The position numbers and the translations under genes are program-made. DNA of 9,815 nucleotides. It comes from Takakia lepidozioides (taxonomy: Eukaryota; Plantae; Bryophyta). The DNA is taken from contig JAKLZA010000229.1 in NCBI GenBank assembly GCA_030704615.1, positions 1 to 9,815 on the forward strand, given 5' to 3'. This document shows positions 1 through 9,815 of the stretch, piece after piece (position 1 is the stretch's first letter; the number at the start of each line of letters is the position of its first letter). Below the pieces are notes generated by a model. It was not told where the DNA came from. It worked only from the letters and a program-made list of their open reading frames with translations, and searched no databases.

Positions 1-5
1 CTTGT

Positions 6-581
6 ATGGCTAGGGGAAATGAGGACGTGATTGAAGGGCAGGTCTCTTCTCTTAGCCTGTGCACCAAAGGGGACAAGATTTATGTTTCCCAAGGAACTCA
101 GACTGATTTGAGTGGAGAACAGTTGGACGAGTTGATTGCATACTGGGAGTCAGGCATTAGTAGTGGACAACAAACTGCTGTAGTTGGCGTTGAGGGCCTC
201 AATATCGCCTTGGACAGTCAGAACTTTGTTGGAGCCAGCAGTTCTGCAGCTGTAGGTGAAATACCAAAGTGGGTGAAAGCTAGGCTTGGAACACAGCCAA
301 AGACAGCCCCGGGGACCAAGGTGTTCAGCCACAAGGCCGTGGTGTACTGGAGCAGAGGAGCAGGAGCTACACAAGTTTGTGCAATCAGACATGGTTGCAG
401 CCGGATACGCTCTGCACAAGGCAACCACGAGCGGGGGTTCATCAGCAATGATATGTTTGTTGTGTGGGAAGGAGATGCAGTCATTCGCAATGAGGACACC
501 CGCAACCGTCTCAAAGCTTTCGAGTTGAGAGACTATCAGACCCTACCTTTGTTTTCTTTAGTGTTCAGTGAGCGGAGATAG
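6..581 (+). CDS. Hypothetical protein, 191 aa, upstream of gag; frame is open to the window edge so it may start further upstream
   Basis: Uninterrupted 576-nt ORF on the same strand as gag-pol with globular-looking composition. No motif recognised. Confidence 0.4.
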   Translation: MARGNEDVIEGQVSSLSLCTKGDKIYVSQGTQTDLSGEQLDELIAYWESGISSGQQTAVVGVEGLNIALDSQNFVGASSSAAVGEIPKWVKARLGTQPKTAPGTKVFSHKAVVYWSRGAGATQVCAIRHGCSRIRSAQGNHERGFISNDMFVVWEGDAVIRNEDTRNRLKAFELRDYQTLPLFSLVFSERR

Positions 582-1073
582 GGGAGTATTGCTTTGTCTC
601 TACCTGGCAGAAAGAGGAGGAGGGTTGGTTAGAGCGAGCTACTGTAGCTTGCGACAAGGTTAGTGGCAGGTTTCTGGACATAGATATACCTCCTACACCT
701 TACCATCATGCAGAGCGAGGCACTTTGAGAGAAGTCTGGCAGTTGATAGCATAGATCAGGATTAGATCTTGCTTGGTCGGGCTTCTATTCTTCCCCTCCA
801 TCTCTGTACTATTTTCATTACCTTGTACTTGTAGTTGCCAAAGCCTCTCTTGGTGGAGGCCAGTCAGTCCGGGGTTTTGGGCTGGGCTATTTTGCAGGAT
901 CAGCATTGCAGCTGGATTTTGGTGTGGGGGTGTTGATGTTTTGATTTCTTGTGTTTGGATCCCCCCCAACACCTGCATGCTTGACTGTGCGCCATGTGGG
1001 TTTGTGTGGGCGCTTGCTTTCATAGGGATTAGGCCGGATTTGATCACCGGTCAATCCTAGAGTATGCTGTCGG

Positions 1074-1144
1074 TGGTGAGGCTAGATGATGACCAGCAAG
1101 ACCACCAGTGTTTCTTCTATGGTGAGGCTGGGTTGATGACCAGC
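1074..1144 (+). repeat. Short imperfect direct repeat, 2 copies of ~24 bp, in the leader before gag
   Basis: tggtgaggctagatgatgaccagc (1074-1097) vs tggtgaggctgggttgatgaccagc (1120-1144). Confidence 0.7.
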
Positions 1145-1271
1145 CAACCATAGGAGTTCTTGCGGTGGATGCAGGTGCAGGTGCCCTGAGCCATTGGGAT
1201 ATGACCCTTAAACTGCAACAGGTGCCCACCCGTGTCACTATTAGATTAGTACTAGAGCCTTATAGTGTCAC

Positions 1272-2473
1272 GTGGAGGAGGTGCACATTGTGAGTGTCAT
1301 TACGGAGTTACCCAAGGGTTTTGAGGGGAGTACGGCTACAGGCAGTAACAGTGAGAGTGGGTTCACAAGACGAGGTATTCGGTTCAGACCACCTTCACCG
1401 CCACCCTCAATTACTGTAGAGTCAGACACAGACTCGGAGGCTTCATCAACAGGTGTGCACTTTCATTCGCCATTGTTGTGGGACGACATGGAGGAGATGT
1501 ATGGAGCTACCAAGGGGCCTCGTAGGTACTCTGGAGCTGTGGGCACAATTGAGTTGGATGACTTTATCCAGGAGTTCGACAGCTGGTGTGATTTGCAGCA
1601 GATGCGCAATCCACAGCTATTCACCCCATTCATGGCGTGGAAGGGACTGTTCCAGCATTTGGAAGGCCCGCCTATGGACGATTACCACGAGTTCAGGCGG
1701 GGACATGAAGCAGAGATTGAGGAGTGGAGGATGTATTGGTCACCTGACTACGTCTCCATTACTCGAGGCACGACGCGACCAGTAGCTGCATCAGTACCAA
1801 TAGCTCCCACTGCCAGCACTAGTAGTGGAGCAAGTAGTGCTGGTACTCTGCAGGTGGTACCAGTTCAAAAGGTGCTACTACTCCTCCTGCCACGACTACA
1901 ACACATGTGCCTAGATTCAACCCGGTGGTGGAGTTCTTCCAGGAGTTGCGGAGGAACTACCAAGGTGTACGGACAGAGAAGCTGCGAAGTTTGCAAGACT
2001 TCCAGCGCAAACCCAGTGAGAGCCTGCGAGAGGCGTACACTCGTATGAGGCGCTTGATAAGTGTGACCCAAGGGGTTACTGAAGCTCAGGCAATCCAGTT
2101 TTGGTATGGAATTGGGACAAGGAGCTCAAGAGAAGGGTGCGAGATGCAACCCTGTTACAAGCAGCCCAACCCACATTAGCAGATGTGTTTCTGCTGGCTG
2201 AGCGGATTGAGCTCAACATGGTGGAGGAGCGAGCGAGTTGTTACAATTGGATTTGGCAAGGACATGCCTGCACGGGGCACAGCTTCAGCCCACAGGCACA
2301 AGGGACTGCCCAACAGCGTGGTCAGGGGGGCAAGGTTGCCCAGCCCAAGTTCCATGGAGCTTACAGGGGACCCCCCCCTCAGGTGTAGAGGCCCGTGGCA
2401 TGCTTTTGCAGGCCAACAACAAACCAGGGGTGATATGTTGGACATGGGAGGACCCCATTTCAAGAGAGATTGA
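1272..2473 (+). pseudogene. gag: Gag (retrotransposon capsid + nucleocapsid), frameshifted
   Basis: PRRYSGAVGTIELDDFIQEFDSWC resembles a Gypsy capsid N-terminus; LFQHLEGP follows. After a frameshift near 1850, LQDFQRKPSESLREAYTRMRRL is major-homology-region-like, then DKELKRRVR...TLADVFLLAERIE. True start codon uncertain. Confidence 0.8.
2436..2473 (+). other. Degenerate CCHC zinc knuckle of Gag (C-W-T-[C]-G-G-P-H-F-K-R-D-[C])
   Basis: tgt tgg aca tg- gga gga ccc cat ttc aag aga gat tga. Restoring one base at 2446 and a Cys codon at 2471 gives CX2CX3HX4C. Confidence 0.65.
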
Positions 2474-3135
2474 GGCTCGCGGGCCATGGCTTATAGCTCA
2501 GGCGGTACCGGCTCCCAGGCGGGATGGTCCACCTCCTGCTCCTGAGGGAGGAGATATGGGAGGCATGGGATTCATGTGCGGAGCAGCACTACCACTAGAG
2601 CAGGTGGAGTCTGCTGCAGCCGTGACTCGAGGAGCAGCACGAGTTCCTGAGCCACGAGGTGCAGAGGTGGAATTGGATCCACAGCGTGGGGAGGCAAGCC
2701 GTAGGCGAGGCTTCCTCAGTCATTCACATTGGCGGAGACTGTGTCGACGCCATCCATGGCACCTAGTTCTCGCCCGACTGTTACCGAGGCGGAGGTTACT
2801 ATGCCATTGGGGAGAGCTACACGTGCAGCATTGACTCCTGCTACCAAGGCTAGTGCGGCCGGTGTGTTATTGGGGGCAGCCACCTCTGTGTGTCAGGCCC
2901 CACTGTTCTCGGCAACCATGATTGCGACGCCGGAGGGGAGAGCAGCTGCAGTGTTCAGACTAGCAGCAACACTCTGTGAGAGTGGGGAGGTCACTTCATC
3001 TTCTGCGGAGTTAGTGGAGGGGTTGTAGTGGCAGAGGGATCCTCGGATTTGAGGGTCAAGACTGCCACGGCTGCGCCATGGCAAGCTGCAGCTGCCAGGT
3101 TGACGGAGCTGCCAGCTAGGCCAGCCTTTGAGCGC

Positions 3136-3510
3136 GCCATGGTGACACCTGGAGTTGTCTTGTTAGACAACCAGGGAGGCATTTTCACTTTGAGTGGACC
3201 GGCAGGCAAGAAGTACCGGCCACTGCGGGTCTTGTTGGACTCGGGAGCTCAGCCACTGATGTTGGGCAGAGCTGCTATTGCAGGTTTGGGCCTCATGGAG
3301 GCGGATATGGAGCCTTGTCCTTTCCAGATACAGACATCTCTGGGAGGATCAGAGCAGGCTCGGGGCATGACACGGCATCAGTTGGCCATTAGATTGCCGG
3401 ATCATCCTATCGATGGCTCAGTGTAATGCGAGCCAAGGCCATTGTGACAGACGCAGTCTCTTACGATGTCCTCGTTGGTGGGGCAGTGTTATACCCCATG
3501 GGCTTCACCC
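3136..3510 (+). pseudogene. pol: Retropepsin-type aspartic protease domain, frameshift near 3424
   Basis: RVLLDSGAQPLML with catalytic Asp at 3238-3240, flap-like IQTSLGG, and closing motif YDVLVGG (~3462-3483). Confidence 0.88.
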
Positions 3511-3951
3511 TGGACTTTTGGGAGGAGTCAGCATCCTACAGGCCTGGATGGCAGTCAGGCGATGGTCGCCGTGCACAGCTCCCTGTGACATTCATTGGGG
3601 GTATAGCGGCTGCCCAGCGGGGCAAGATGCCAACACTAGCCGCCTTTACAGCTGCAGTTAGTTGGCCTGGAGAGTTGCTGGAAGGCAATGCCCATGCAGA
3701 GGATGTGCCACCTCCAGCAGAGCAGGATGACATGCATGGTATGGCGGAGTTGCCTGCCATGGTTGCTCACACTCCATTGTGGGGTACGAGCAAGGATTTG
3801 CAGCAGGTTGCTGATCGACGGGTGCAACAAGCCTGGGTAGAGGCTTTTGTACCGTCGGAGAGAGAGGAGGAGAGTGCGGGGTATTGCACCAGGACCACCT
3901 CAGTTGTCACCATTGGATACCACACCTATTGTGTGGCAGTATCCGGATGAA

Positions 3952-4890
3952 GGCATTTGCCTTCTGGACTTGTTTGGCGGGATCAGCACGGATTGGCTGC
4001 TGGTACAGGCAGGTGTGCGGTAAGGCGTTACCTGTATGTGGAGAGGGATGAGACTGCACGACGCGTCTCACTGCGCCATGTTGCTCAGATGGTACAGCAG
4101 TACCCTGCTTGTTGCCAGTGTCTGCAGTTCGTGGATACCAACAAGCCTTGCCAGCAGACATTCGTTGCTGGGGGCGCAGGATTTGGAGCAGGTTGGCTCC
4201 ATTGATCTGGTAGTGGCAGGTTGGCCCTGCCAAGGGCATTCATCAGCGGGCATGGCAATGGATTGCGAGACTCGAGGACGGGTCTGTTTTGGGAGATGGT
4301 GCGGATTTTGCGCCACTTGCAGCTTCATCAAGCTGTATCTCCAGCATACATCTTGGAGAATGTGCCACTGATGGGTGATTCTCGGGCCAGGGTGATGGCC
4401 AGTGTGCATCAAGTCCGGTCGTGGCTTGGGTCAGCAGTGTTGCTGGATGCAGCTGCAGTGGGATCACGGGCTCATCGTCCACGGATGGTGGACTAACTTG
4501 ATGCCACCCGCACTGCTCAAGCGTGCATTTGATGGGGTGCAGCGGCCAGCACACCTCACGTGGATGGCATTTTGGACACAGGGAGGCAGTCTCAACGTGT
4601 GAGACACGATGACCGTTCGCCTTTGGCAGTGGTCAACAGGGTGGGTCAACCACGAGCAACATTACCTACACTGCTCAGCTTCCCAGGATCCCATGCTTTC
4701 GGGATGGTGGACCTGGCCTCCTGTGGGATGCTCAGTTGCAACAGTTAGTGGAGCCTAATGCCGACGAGCGAGAGCGGGCTATGGGGTTTTCCACTGGGAC
4801 CACGGCGGTGCCTTCTCTTTCTGAGGCATCACGTCGTCAGGTGTTGGGGCAAGCAATGGATCTCAATTGCTTGACCTGGATTATCAGCTT
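3952..4890 (+). pseudogene. C5 cytosine DNA methyltransferase catalytic domain (DNMT3-like) embedded in pol between PR and RT; frameshifted
   Basis: Motif I LLDLFGGIST(G) 3961-3990 (frame absent from ORF track); II YLYVERD 4029-4049; IV IDLVVAGWPCQGHS with PCQ at 4225-4233; V GLRDSRTGLFWE; VI YILENVP with ENV at 4356-4364; VII VLLDAAAV; VIII RAHRPR-WWTNL 4467-4500; IX ERERAMGF 4766-4789; X RRQVLGQAMD 4832-4861. Confidence 0.93.
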
Positions 4891-5259
4891 GGCTATGGCT
4901 GAGCAACGTAGAGTGCGGAGTGCACTCCCCTTCATGGTCTCTCTGCCTACCGAGACGGTACAGGCAGCGAGTGGGGGCGAGCCGGTGGTGAGGACCACGG
5001 GGTGTAGACATCCATGGCACACGTGGGAGGTGCTCGAGGTTCAGAGGGAGTTGGCAGCCAAGGCAGCTGTGATGGATGAGGTTGGGATTCTTCTCGGGTT
5101 GAGGAGGTTCTCAATGATGAGATGATGGGGCAGGATGAGGCCTTGTCATTGACTGAGCAGGAAGGGGGTACTGCTCAAGAGGTTGCAGCATAGCAACCAC
5201 GGGACGCGTCCTCTACCTCTAAGCCCACTGGACTTAAGGTTGCAGTTACGGAGGACAAT

Positions 5260-5990
5260 TGGGAGCCTGACATTGGACCCATTGTCACCGGAGGAGAGAG
5301 ACGACGTATACGGCGGTTCCTGAGGGCTTACAGGAATTGCTTTGCCTTCAGTTTGAAGGACTTGGGAGCACTGAAGGGTCAAGAGATCCGTATTGAGTTG
5401 GCCACTGACACGCCAATCTTTCGGAGACCCTATAGATACAGTGACATGGAGAGGTCTTTGATTCAGATGAGGACTCAAGATCTCTGGGAGGCAGGTTTGG
5501 TGGAGCTCTCTGGTGGAGAGTATGCTTCAGCCACAGTGATGCCAGCTAAGAAGGATGTCTATGGCAATTGGACGGAGAGACGTATGTGCGGTGATTACCG
5601 GCCTGTAAATCGTCAGACCAAGTCCGATAGGTATGCCATGCCGACACCAGAGGAGATCTTTGATGCCATTGGGCATTCCAAGGTCTTTAGCACGTTGGAT
5701 TTACGATCCGGATATCACCAGTTGCCGATCAAGGAGGCGGATAAGCAAAAGACGGCATTTGGGAAGAGTCGATGGACAGGATTCTAGCAGGGGGGGTGGA
5801 GTTTGCTCGGTGCTAATAGATGACATCATCATCTTTAGTGCTACGGTGGAGGAGCATGAGAGACACCTTCAGGGGGTATTTGAGCGCTTGAGGACGCACG
5901 GATTGAAGTTACATCCGGGCAAGTGCAAGTTTTTCCACAACCAGATTGAGTATCTGGGTCACATGATATATCCTGGAGGATTGGGGGTAC
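5260..5990 (+). pseudogene. pol: Reverse transcriptase (Ty3/Gypsy type) with internal deletion and frameshifts
   Basis: PIFRRPYRYS, YASATVMPAKKD, RMCGDYRPVN, FSTLDLRSGYHQ (Asp 5698-5700), KTAF, [Y]IDDIIIFS at 5814-5839 (Tyr codon lacks one base), GLKLHPGKCKFF, IEYLGHMI. The PFGLxNAP segment is missing near 5763. Confidence 0.95.
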
Positions 5991-6209
5991 AGCAGACTAA
6001 GGTAGAGTCCATTGCACAGGTTCCACGCCCCACGGATGTGAGCCGAGTTCGAGCTTTCATGGGGTTAGCAAACTATTACAGACGGTTTGTGCCATTGCAA
6101 AGGCTCTAACCAAGCTGACCAAGGTGGACCAGGAGTGGCAGTGGGAAGATGAGCAAGAACAAGCTTTTCAAGAGCTCAAGGCGAGGTTGACCTCGGCGCC
6201 CATCTGAGA

Positions 6210-6586
6210 CGACCTATCAGGGGGCGTCCTTTTCAGCTGCATACAGATTGGAGCATGTGGGGCTTGGAGCGGTGCTCACACAGGTGGATGATGAGGGAGA
6301 GAGTTCGTAGTGGCTTATGCTAGCCGCTCGAACAATGCTGCAGAGTCTAAGTATAGCTCATATGAGGGAGAATGCTTAGCTGCAGTGTGGGCCGTGGCAC
6401 ACTTCAGGTGCTATCTATACGGCAATCTCTTCACCCTTGTCACGGATCACCAACCACTCAGTGGTTGATGGAGTCAGACAAGCTTACGGGAAGTTTGCAC
6501 GGTGGGCACTCATCCTTCAAGAGTATGACTTTCAGGTGGTGCATCGACCGGGTTTGGTCAATCGCAATGCAGATGGGTTGAGTCGC
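6210..6586 (+). pseudogene. pol: RNase H (Ty3/Gypsy type), frameshifted
   Basis: PFQLHTDWS (Asp 6246), GLGAVLTQ, VVAYASR, YSSYEGECLAAVWAV (Glu 6370), FTLVTDHQP (Asp 6445), ARWALILQEYDF, NADGLSR (to 6586). Confidence 0.93.
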
Positions 6587-6807
6587 AATCCATGCACGAG
6601 CCAACAGGATGACACTGGAGCTCGGTGGCATGGTGAGACGGACGAGGAGATGGTGCCCGGATGGCATGCATCTGCATTTCTGTGTATCTTGGCAGCGGAA
6701 GGCCAGGTTGGACCTGCTGCAACAGGGATGACTGTAGATCAAGTGTCTGAGGACCCTGAGGCCAGCAATGAGCAAGGTGGCGCCAAAGATATACAGAGGA
6801 TTCAGTT

Positions 6808-8030
6808 GTGTTGGACTACCTCCGCACTGGAGACACGGCAGCCACTGTGACTGCCAAGGAGAGGGATCGGATCCTACAACGAGCCAAGAGGTTCAAGTGG
6901 GAGGGGACACACCTGCTCCGAGTGTGGGAGGATGGTCGAGTGAGGATTGTGCCTCACCCAACACAGCGGGCACGGTTAGTGCGCCATGCCCATGAGGAGT
7001 TGGGGCATTTTGGGGTGCGACGCACTCATAGTCTACTGCAGGGGCAGTATTGGTGGCGTGGTATGCACACAGAGGTGCAACAATTGTGGCTAGGTGCATG
7101 GTGTGTGACAGGGTGCGTGCTTCATTCAACGCCCCTACTCCACAATTGCACCTCTTCCGATCATGGGATTGGGCTACAGGTGGAGTCTTGACTTCGCAGG
7201 GCCGTTGCCACTGACCATGCGCCACAACAAGTACGTGTTGGTGATGGTGGAGCACTTCTCCAAGTGGATTGAATTGGTTCCATTGCCTGATAAGGCTAGT
7301 GAGGGAGCTGCGTATGCATTCTTGGATGTGTGTGCTTAGCCGATTCGGTGCTCCAGCTGAGGTACTCACGGACCAAGGGAGAGAGTTCTTGGGGGAGTTT
7401 CAGGCTTTGTGTGACAAGGCCTTGATAGACCACCGCACCACTTCTCGGGATCATCCTGAGGCCGATGGCTTGGCAGAGAGAGTTGTTCAGACAGTAAAGA
7501 GGGTTTGCGCAAGTATGGCTTGCAGAAGGGACACCTAGGAGATTGGGACCTTCAGTTACCCTGGTTAGCCATGGGCTACAGGTCAGCAAGCAAGCATCAC
7601 TTGCCTCCTTCTCACCATACTTTCTTCTCTTTGGCCGAGAGCCGGATTTGCCTACATCCATTCGCAGAGAAGCTGCTACAGTTCTTAACCTTGACGATCC
7701 GGACGTGTGGGCACGTGCATGTGAGCAGCGTGCAGAGTTGTTCAAGAGAGTCATGCCCATGGCTTTGAGAACCTTGCCATTGCACAACACCGTGATACGT
7801 TGAGGTATGCTACCATACGTGGTGGGGGCTATCGTCCTGGGGTTCGGAGATTCAACCCTGGTGACTATGTCTATCTGCAGCAGACTGCTCCTACGACCCT
7901 GGATGTGTGACTGCAGGACGTGTTATTTTGAGGGTTCGAGAGTCTTGCCCTCAGGCGTCTTGGTCTTGGAGGGTCGGGATGGCATAACTTGGAAGGACCA
8001 TGTGCGTAATTGTGCGCCATGTCACCTTCC
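6808..8030 (+). pseudogene. pol: Integrase (HHCC zinc domain, DDE core, C-terminal region), frameshifted
   Basis: His 6991 and 7006 (HEELGH), YWW, Cys 7095 and 7104 (CMVC); WSLDFAGP (Asp 7190), VLTDQGREF (Asp 7371), HPEADGLAER (Glu 7476); SPYFLLFGREP; FNPGDYVYL. Confidence 0.94.
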
Positions 8031-8085: not shown

Positions 8086-8220
8086 TGCATGTTGTGTGGG
8101 TCTGCTAAAGGGGCAGCCACCATGCTGGTGTGTGATCGATGCTCTAGAGGTTGGCATATGGGATGCTTGACTCCACCTCTTGAGATGGTTCCGGATGGGG
8201 ATTGGTTATGTCCACATTGC
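8086..8220 (+). other. PHD finger (C4-H-C3) at the C-terminus of integrase; stop codon at 8227-8229
   Basis: CMLCGSAKGAATMLVCDRCSRGWHMGCLTPPLEMVPDGDWLCPHC has all eight zinc ligands plus the PPL..VP.G.W.CP.C signature, in frame with the integrase tail (ORF 7807-8229). Confidence 0.95.
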
Positions 8221-8475
8221 ATTGGATAGTGGGAGTGGATACAACCATGGAAGGCTAACAAGAAACGCAAGGCCCAGCTACTAGGAGACCTTGAACACAC
8301 GAGATCCTGGCTCAAGTTCACAGATTGCAAGACGGCGACTAACGATGGGGCTACTCTTGTACCCGGCCTCTTGGTCTATAGGGTTTGAGTACAATAGGAC
8401 AGTGATAGAGGACTTAGTACGGCTGTGGCTATTACATCTTGTAGCTATCTGGGTAGAGGGACCTATCCACCAGCT

Positions 8476-8482
8476 AGGGGGG
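8476..8482 (+). promoter_or_regulatory. Candidate polypurine tract (plus-strand primer)
   Basis: agggggg, 4 nt before the TG that starts the putative LTR and ~250 nt after the pol stop. Short for a PPT. Confidence 0.6.
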
Positions 8483-8611
8483 CGATTGTGGCAGACTACT
8501 TTATTGTGCATATATGTGTGGTTGTGGTTTGGACAGCGATGTAGTTGTGTAGCGATATGTATGCGCACGACAGCTGTCAAGTTAAATAAGCACAGTGTGA
8601 AAACTAGATAG

Positions 8612-8617
8612 AATAAA
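8612..8617 (+). promoter_or_regulatory. AATAAA, candidate polyadenylation signal in the LTR
   Basis: Canonical hexamer inside the putative LTR, within the loop of an aactag/ctagtt stem (8602-8624). Function not demonstrated. Confidence 0.35.
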
Positions 8618-8630
8618 GCTAGTTATTTGT

Positions 8631-8691
8631 ATTTAACACTTGGATTTAGGTCAAGTGTTAAATCAGGTGTCAAGTTTAGTTTGACACCTGA
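8631..8691. repeat. Two abutting perfect inverted repeats (12-bp and 11-bp stems)
   Basis: atttaacacttg (8631-8642) / caagtgttaaat (8652-8663), loop gatttaggt; tcaggtgtcaa (8663-8673) / ttgacacctga (8681-8691), loop gtttagt. Confidence 0.92.
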
Positions 8692-8717
8692 CCCGTCTTA
8701 TCTTCACGAGAGCGGCA

Positions 8718-8756
8718 GTCGCGCGGCTCATCTCTCTCGAGTTGAGCCTGCGCGAC
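8718..8756. repeat. GC/CpG-rich inverted repeat
   Basis: gtcgcgcggctca (8718-8730) pairs with tgagcc[t]gcgcgac (8743-8756) with one bulged T; inner ctc/gag closes a tctc loop. Confidence 0.85.
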
Positions 8757-9113
8757 CAAGCTCCTGCATGCGTTTAGATTGAGTGTGCTATGTGGGGTAC
8801 AGGTTGTTGTGGGATGGAGTCCCCATAGCTTGGGGTGCCCCTGGCTCGACTTATGTTTCAAAGAGTGATGGATGGATTAACGTGTTCTTGTGTTGAAGTG
8901 TGTGTCCTTCAAGCTTTCTTATCATTGTGGCAGACTATTTATTGTGCATATATGTGTGGTGGGTGTTTGGACAGCGATGTAGTTGTTGTAGCGATACGTA
9001 TGCGCACGACACTAACCCTGTTGTGCACACCCAGAGGGGAGCCAGGTTGACAGAGCTGCGGCTTGGAAGGCCTAGTTGTTAAGGGGTATCTGCTTTGGTG
9101 TAGTGTCGCAACA

Positions 9114-9815
9114 CCAATTGAAGAGGAAAAGTAGCAGTACCATCAAATTCTATGAAGAAAAAGAAGGAAGAAATGGAAATCCTAGAGGAACCAGCCACTG
9201 TGAGTTTACAGGATGAAGTGGTGACTGGTGTTGGACAATCCACAGCTGGATGAGCAAGTGAGGAGTGAATGTGGGAACTAAAGAGGACCGAGGATGGTGA
9301 AGGTGGAGCTGATTTGGAGCCAGAATTTTTTGAAGTAAGCTAGTATGAGTTGTTCATCAAATACAGAGATGTATTTGCTTGGAGCTATGAGGATCAAAAA
9401 GGGATACCACCTGAAATCTGTCAGCATAAGATTGAACGGAACCAGGAGTCAGTACCAATCAAGCAGGCAAGGTACAGAGATGAATCCCAACTACGCACAG
9501 AAGGTTTGGAGAAGAGATCAAGAAGTTGGCTGGAGGCTAAGTTTATATCCAGACCGATAGGAGAGTATACAACTTGGTTGTCACCCATTGTGATGTTCCA
9601 AAGAAGAATGGGTAAACTAAGAGTTTTGTGGTGAACTACAAGAAGTTGAATGCTTGTACGAAGAAAGATCCTTTCCTTTTTGCCATTCGTTAGAAGCAGT
9701 ATTGGACACTGTGGCAGGCCTTAGATGTGACTCATTCATGGATGGCTTCAGTGGTTATAACCAGTGCCAAGTGGCAGAAGAAGACCAAGGAAAGACAGCT
9801 TTCATCACAGACTGG
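9114..9815 (+). mobile_element. pol: Fragment of a second Ty3/Gypsy element (non-chromovirus, Tat/Athila-superclade-like): PR-RT linker and N-terminal RT, degenerate, runs off window
   Basis: KYRDVFAWSYED (Asp 9368), GIPPEICQHKIE, PIKQARYR-MNPNYAQKV, WLSPIV, GKLRV, KLNACTKKDPF, SFMDGFSGYNQ (9732-9764), KTAFITDW (9792-9815). Clearly divergent from the RT at 5260-5990 and more A-rich. Confidence 0.9.

Follow-up and report, generated by a model that had tools for sequence, protein, structure and literature searches.

The closest described system to the element analysed here is KnitGypsy-Dnmt3 of the alga Klebsormidium nitens, a published Gypsy retrotransposon that includes a Dnmt3 domain (de Mendoza 2018, PMC5890265). 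As far as the accessible text of that paper goes, Gypsy-Dnmt3 elements are reported in K. nitens only, with the DNA methyltransferase (DNMT) in the Pol ORF, and this sole earlier Gypsy case is a low-copy element whose enzyme activity was not demonstrated: no methylation was observed in yeast, a result that the authors treat as not decisive. The same text describes SymbioDIRS-Dnmt3 and SymbioLINE-Dnmt, dinoflagellate retrotransposons with cytosine methyltransferases, and two of the SymbioDIRS domains carried out de novo CG methylation in yeast; these differ from the present element in being tyrosine-recombinase or LINE elements. EpiLTRs likewise carry a cytosine methyltransferase, but in the portion available (bioRxiv 10.64898/2026.05.21.726589) theirs is sister to DNMT4 and is found at the 3' end of pol, together with DAM and a chromodomain. 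Both that preprint and PMC12344493, in the parts seen, refer to 'streptophytes', citing de Mendoza 2018. One question that has stood since 2018 is why retrotransposons keep an enzyme that hosts employ for their silencing.

The window, that is, the whole 9,815-nt stretch of Takakia lepidozioides DNA that was analysed, contains a plus-strand Ty3/Gypsy element that extends from base 1, if not from further left, to 9011 (Table 1). A Pfam scan of 26 frames gave the plus-strand order gag, protease, DNA_methylase, RT, RNase H, integrase and PHD, in which the Ty3/Gypsy order Gag-PR-RT-RH-IN, with a DDE integrase, is present. We regard it as very nearly certain that this is a Ty3/Gypsy element carrying a DNMT3-type methyltransferase. 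The concept itself is already published, as a first-pass annotation of this DNA had correctly stated (PMC5890265, in the text available); what is added here is the occurrence in land plants, a stop that follows the DNMT, the PHD finger, a further (third) layout, and the presence of intact copies in a plant model species.

Table 1. Features of the element in the 9,815-nt window
Feature	Position	Strand	Basis or remark
5' internal region of element	1..1487	+	left terminal repeat A1 outside the window, likely to the left
Gag (capsid and nucleocapsid region), ORF1 start	1488..2500, right end approximate	+	broken in window copy
Aspartic protease	3130..3560, limits approximate	+	DSG motif in 3229-3249
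Predicted DNMT3-type C5 cytosine methyltransferase, unpermuted, last ORF1 domain	3949..4891	+	75% identity to intact P0003
ORF1 stop TAG, then CAA CCA, in RT frame	5191..5199	+	sequence; match to CAR YYA readthrough context
Reverse transcriptase and RNase H, ORF2 start	5194..6600, right end approximate	+	Pfam RVT_1, RT_RNaseH
Integrase, H2C2 zinc finger and DDE core	6950..7700, limits approximate	+	Pfam Integrase_H2C2, rve
PHD finger, ORF2 end, then stop	8086..8229	+	Pfam PHD, E 3e-11
Short polypurine tract AGGGGGG, directly before B1	8476..8482	+	G-run at same place in L058, L048, L080
Split terminal repeats: B1 8485-8572, GC, A2 8575-8923, B2 8924-9011	8485..9011	+	B1/B2 93% identical

The start of the first frame is placed by the sequence MEEMYGA at 1488, which aligns with residue 1 of Marchantia Mp4g09160 (P0030), and the similarity to that protein (60% identity across 1136 residues) continues to 5032 and takes in the whole first frame. 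Within it, the Retrotrans_gag match (E 2e-4) lies under the Pfam cut-off, and the protease gives a weak Asp_protease_2 match (E 0.02) collinear with relatives that match better. An IDD motif of the RT is found in 5813-5836 and integrase motifs at 7181-7201, 7368-7388 and 7464-7484, and the closest solved structure to ORF2 of the intact relative L050 is Ty3 Gag-Pol (E 4e-98). For the PHD finger, the best solved matches include CHD4, PHF12, KDM5A/B, ATXR5 and PHF21A. Upstream of gag, contigs of other copies cross 3-708, 496-943 and 741-1344 at a family-like depth, and in relatives A1 lies approximately 1.15 kb ahead of gag. The 5' region also contains an open frame of at least 192 codons (3-581, plus strand) that has no Pfam match, and neither 110 candidates of similar length nor the loci of relatives yielded a homologue; its Atlas look-alikes score 0.86-0.87, below the reliable range, and include a putative 2OG-Fe(II) oxygenase cluster. 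An imperfect short tandem repeat occupies 1085-1160, with an extra unit in one contig of another copy.

The first-pass annotation had reported a full C5 methyltransferase domain with intact PC, ENV and RxR motifs, intronless and co-oriented on the same strand between the protease upstream and the RT downstream, and split over several reading frames. All of this stands. A frameshift-aware alignment of the DNMT domain of P0003 (319 aa) with window positions 3949-4891 gives 234/310 identical residues and a score of 1156, whereas reversed DNA scores 32 and none of 20 shuffles exceeds 54. The motifs can be read directly: LLDLFGG (3961-3981), VVAGWPCQG (4210-4236), YILENVP (4347-4367), RAHRPR (4467-4484), ERERAMGF (4766-4789) and GQAMDLN (4847-4867), such that motifs I, IV (PC), VI (ENV), VIII (RxR) and X are all present in unpermuted order. 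Seven frameshifts (near 4019, 4108, 4164, 4253, 4485, 4559 and 4696) and no stop lie inside the domain, and two single-frame pieces match PF00145, one above the cut-off (E 5e-5) and one below (E 0.004).

The type of enzyme was deduced from comparison with solved structures. DNMT3A is the best match to P0003 (E 6e-12), and a profile of 62 relatives ranks DNMT3A (1e-26) ahead of DRM (3e-15), HhaI (4e-9) and DNMT2 (1e-4) in the PDB. The structural model of P0003 (pLDDT 92.9) again finds DNMT3A as its best fold match (E 3e-19), with all top ranks taken by DNMT3. Judged from these searches, the window domain is a C5 cytosine methyltransferase of DNMT3 type with predicted DNA methylation activity, a class assignment based on profile and fold searches. 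A DRM identity was rejected because the motif order is unpermuted, and the DRM profile score is likewise the poorer one. The motifs GWPCQG, ENV and HRxR are kept in 20/20 proteins of the type that ends at the stop described below. Further out in the family, the residue ahead of the catalytic cysteine is not always proline, as in the GWECQG of the distant member P0048.

The window copy is interrupted by approximately 35 frameshifts and a single stop over 6.7 kb. Of the 26 breaks in three stretches that were scored, 25 are base losses and none is a stop; by comparison, the DNMT of 67 metagenome loci has 218 stops and 28 frameshifts. Because the window shows losses without stops, unlike the stop-rich decay of the metagenome copies, its frameshifts are more likely to reflect assembly error than ordinary decay, and the copy may be less damaged than it appears. 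CpG observed/expected is 0.51 in the element versus 0.22 in a 516-base neighbouring element, and there is thus no extra CpG loss that singles out the element, a point against the model proposed below. That neighbour (9300-9815, plus strand) is the RT start of a second, unrelated Gypsy-like element, also frameshifted, the two pieces of which have no Pfam match.

Relatives of the domain are abundant: 329/600 metagenome pattern matches encode one, from which 80 loci were kept, and a search of 50%-identity representatives returned 269 matches at E 1e-30 or better. The first-pass annotation had left room for a segment that lacked a profile match, or that was peculiar to this copy and out of frame with pol; instead, the profile matches are significant, many copies and relatives carry the domain, and in intact relatives it is in one frame with the protease (P0004, P0014 and P0030). 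Furthermore, contigs of four runs cover the DNMT at summed depths similar to those of the protease and RT, where summed contig depth is not equivalent to copy number and 85,201 contigs came from one run, possibly that of the source sample. The DNMT is therefore, as far as sequence can tell, an integral, conserved and intronless part of a Gypsy element family. Two scans of viral contigs found no relatives. The closest named relatives are proteins of the liverworts Marchantia polymorpha, M. paleacea and Calypogeia fissa, from which the host would be judged a likely non-seed land plant. In M. polymorpha, a model plant for which methylation mutants exist, the annotation contains complete Gag-PR-DNMT frames (1278-1281 aa) at no fewer than six loci, and PF00145 matches in liverwort annotations should accordingly be treated with caution, as they can be transposon genes. 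Four such Marchantia copies annotated as genes (P0225, P0226, P0227 and P0230) are on the V (male) chromosome.

The dN/dS comparison across copies that the first-pass annotation had proposed shows that the DNMT is under purifying selection across the family. Among three pairs of intact copies, dN/dS of the DNMT is 0.097, 0.068 and 0.071 (0.07-0.10), versus 0.051, 0.053 and 0.065 for the RT; the window compared to L013 gives 0.08, with dS near saturation. These values belong to a set of 15 pairs, in which several window pairs are saturated and only codons from stretches of 30% local identity were counted, a filter that may depress the ratios. For close copies that have decayed, four pairs give dN/dS of 0.40-0.98, as is expected following insertion. 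Two of the loci, L048:4001-13203 and L058:3997-13203, occupy the same insertion site with the same CATA duplication in two assemblies, and their DNMT coding sequences differ by approximately 4% with dN/dS near 1, indicating one old insertion that is decaying in two lineages.

Where the first-pass annotation was mistaken was in placing the enzyme inside the Pol polyprotein. A conserved in-frame TAG divides the DNMT from the RT, and a single continuous PR-DNMT-RT ORF, which it had proposed to look for, finds no support in this clade; here the Gag-PR frame closes with the DNMT, and the RT comes after the stop. Both sides of the junction could be read in 58 of 81 sequences (80 loci and the window), 50 of them distinct, and in 43 of these 50 the stop is at the same position (32 TAG, 11 TAA). 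The six bases that follow are a full CARYYA in 5 cases (among them the window, L049, L050 and L051), CAR YY with a different sixth base in 35, and TAA CCC in 3. The seven remaining junctions consist of five from a distant single-frame group, one that is frameshifted, and one with an insertion after TAA CAA CCC. Most of the 43 stops come from one metagenome family, in which the commonest hexamer is CAA CCC (off CARYYA at the sixth base), and the independent evidence therefore amounts to about three subfamilies. In that large family, TAA makes up 11/38 of the stops, which sits at the top of the G-to-A background seen at other TAG columns (mean 0.125, range 0-0.32).

The arrangement is clearest in the intact L050, where a 1369-aa Gag-PR-DNMT frame ends in TAG CAG TTA and is followed, in phase, by a 1047-aa RT-RH-IN-PHD frame. 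TAGCA forms an invariant island within an otherwise unconserved, drifting linker, and in four elements only 1/276 other TAG triplets is followed by CAR YY. The motif persists although dS is about 3 (saturated), while the second codon varies among Pro, Ser and Leu. Among the matches listed from four runs, one of them from a second organism, there is no difference at 5191-5193. At the protein level, 27 of 30 long protease-DNMT proteins (1270 aa or more and 48% identity or more to P0003, several being cluster mates and not independent) end 81-173 residues past the DNMT, without an RT. The three exceptions are P0048 and two Marchantia gene models, P0031 and P0032, which fuse DNMT to RT without the stop region and are known here as proteins alone. 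Past the stop, an in-frame Met first appears at residue 85 (window) or residue 117 (L050), in both cases inside the RT.

A single in-frame stop between two frames is familiar from the TMV replicase, MuLV gag-pol and soybean SIRE1 pol-env (the last through the available part of PMC2194720), but here the stop comes after the protease and an extra enzyme and before the RT. CAR YYA after UAG is the established TMV signal, with 32% readthrough in a plant reporter (PMC2754532, in the part seen), and the TAG CAA CCA of the window fits this context. The gag stop of Candida Tca2 had been presumed leaky, yet no readthrough was found in baker's yeast, according to the accessible part of PMC2194720, an example of how such presumptions can prove wrong. 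Folding of the sequence 3' of the stop gave no support for a stimulatory structure (z -0.6 to -2.2), and nothing as strong as that of MuLV.

Three layouts of DNMT-bearing Gypsy elements can be distinguished by comparing relatives: (i) DNMT at the end of Gag-PR, ahead of the stop; (ii) DNMT between PR and RT in a single frame, as in K. nitens KFL_009030040 (PR-DNMT-RT-RH-IN); and (iii) DNMT approximately 950 residues past the RT start, after RT-RNase H and before integrase, found in 60 proteins (P0083, P0054, P0063 and 57 others) that often also have a PHD finger. KFL_009030040 is collinear with Marchantia P0030 from the protease through the DNMT (31% over 594 columns, E 2e-60), and KnitGypsy-Dnmt3, as described in the text at hand, shares with the elements studied here an intronless, unpermuted Dnmt3 domain, DIRS-like split repeats and purifying selection. 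It differs in that DNMT and RT share one ORF there (as also in the partial P0060), whereas a conserved stop lies between them here, and in that the closest named relatives of the window element are in liverworts. In a quick DNMT tree (56 rows, with 20 of the 60 type-iii rows, a midpoint root and the broken window copy left out), a branch with an SH-aLRT of 96 has the 22 stop-type rows all to one side, and in a FastTree of the RT (35 rows, three having been removed for short coverage) five stop-type rows likewise fall on one side of a branch. The stop thus likely arose once, on trees that lack a true root.

Together, these observations suggest a model in which a Gag-PR-DNMT3 frame ends in a leaky UAG, the DNMT is packaged with Gag, and the enzyme likely methylates the element's own cDNA; we give this reading as a whole a probability of roughly 0.55. 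Most ribosomes would terminate after the DNMT and yield bulk Gag-PR-DNMT, and some would read through the UAG and add RT, RNase H, integrase and PHD. Readthrough is the firmest of these steps and is probable given the conserved context, and packaging of the DNMT with Gag is likely, though slightly less so. Because the stop leaves the enzyme joined to Gag, methyltransferase is predicted to outnumber RT greatly in a particle, so that each particle would hold many methyltransferase domains beside the cDNA, which the DNMT would methylate before or at insertion. That the cDNA is the substrate is an evenly balanced proposition, and one that placement on the Gag side makes directly testable. Several of the KDM5, ATXR5, PHF21A and CHD4 PHD fingers read unmethylated H3K4, and it is conceivable, if somewhat doubtful, that the PHD finger would steer the integrase to chromatin, perhaps to unmethylated H3K4. 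The broader proposition, of a widespread and little-noticed split-repeat Gypsy lineage that extends to land plants, in which readthrough loads every capsid precursor with DNMT, new copies are pre-methylated and the PHD finger picks chromatin, is speculative and rather unlikely in full; under it, non-seed plants would have DNMT3 activity from these elements in addition to that of their own enzyme.

A different site of action would leave the anatomy unchanged. The DNMT could be an active enzyme whose targets are integrated copies or insertion sites within the nucleus, where it would damp its own family or set local chromatin, rather than cDNA inside the particle. In moss, de novo methylation and most CHH methylation are the work of DNMT3 (PMC10952607, in the part seen), bulk synthesis with Gag would supply enough free enzyme, and self-limitation was raised as an option by de Mendoza et al. 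(PMC5890265, in the text available). In ORF1, however, the DNMT is not accompanied by a targeting module, and as a fusion behind Gag-protease it would end up in the particle; we consider nuclear action unlikely, though it survives better than the remaining alternatives.

Somewhat less likely still is that the DNMT remains with Gag but that RT-integrase is made from a spliced message, with the TAG as 3' splice site, or from one separately started at a downstream AUG. Ogre elements splice pol. Foamy viruses do likewise (PMC2194720, in the part available), and TAG fits a YAG acceptor: the 25 bases before the stop are 64% pyrimidine in L002, L006 and L058 and 56% in L049-L051. In the window, however, they are only 40% pyrimidine, with three other AGs within 13 bases upstream of the stop. 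One contig crosses the junction without a joint, but it comes from a run that may be DNA and so does not bear on splicing. A separate start could use the in-frame ATG found 3-14 codons past the stop in L006, L049 and L051, and the large metagenome family has both a U-rich stretch ahead of the stop and an ATG two codons after it, but the window and L050 have no such early Met. Moreover, splicing would leave unexplained the conservation of CAR YY and the open frame on either side of a single stop.

It is improbable that the domain has been retained to bind nucleic acids or methylate RNA within the particle, without methylating DNA. The algal relative showed no DNA activity in yeast (PMC5890265, in the text available), and of the 193 full-length domains in the wider family only 98 have PCQ, but the 20 stop-type proteins keep all three catalytic motifs without exception and DNMT3A scores far above DNMT2. 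That the element encodes one continuous PR-DNMT-RT polyprotein, or is a one-off capture of a host gene, with the stop as mere damage, can be dismissed as highly improbable: a single frame does run through DNMT and RT in more distant relatives, K. nitens KFL_009030040 included, and 5/50 junctions are of this kind, but the stop recurs at the same spot in 43/50 junctions, intact elements included, does not differ among the matches listed from four runs, and marks off one side of a branch in both trees.

Reports of these elements were sought in the literature. The words 'PHD' and 'readthrough' are absent from the main text of PMC5890265, whose Fig. 4c may show more domains, and 'methyltransferase' and 'PHD' are absent from the text of the REXdb paper. 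Land-plant Gypsy-DNMT elements are not described in the portions seen of PMC6317226, PMC10952607, PMC11982613 and PMC12440569, and a search of mainly open-access literature turned up no account of the land-plant members such as the Marchantia loci, of the stop, or of the PHD finger. The supplements of the EpiLTR preprint and PMC12344493 could list land-plant copies. Gypsy-like domain order is shared with Troyka, Phygy and Selgy, the latter two being non-seed-plant lineages. Membership of Troyka was rejected: that group is confined to animals, and its ends are CG..CG, flanked by duplications of 3 bp (PMC12440569, in the part seen), versus TG..CA ends and 4-bp duplications in relatives here. Phygy prefers NCGN sites, and the two sites known here are CATA and GGTC.

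At their ends, relatives have, instead of two full LTRs and a tRNA primer site, an A-coding-B-A-B arrangement of repeats, seen whole over 9.2-9.3 kb in L058/L048 and L080. These elements have TGTCA..GACA ends and 4-bp target duplications at two independent sites (CATA and GGTC), and in the window the element ends in CGACA at 9011. The window contains no second copy of A2, a search of it for tRNA genes found none, and in three relatives the 26 bases past A1 do not start with TGG. The B1/A2 junction (8567-8580) is a palindrome, GACAGCTGTC, that resembles the junction of a two-LTR circle and may act as template for both element ends in reverse transcription. The same ten junction bases are found in L037, L065 and the distant L078.
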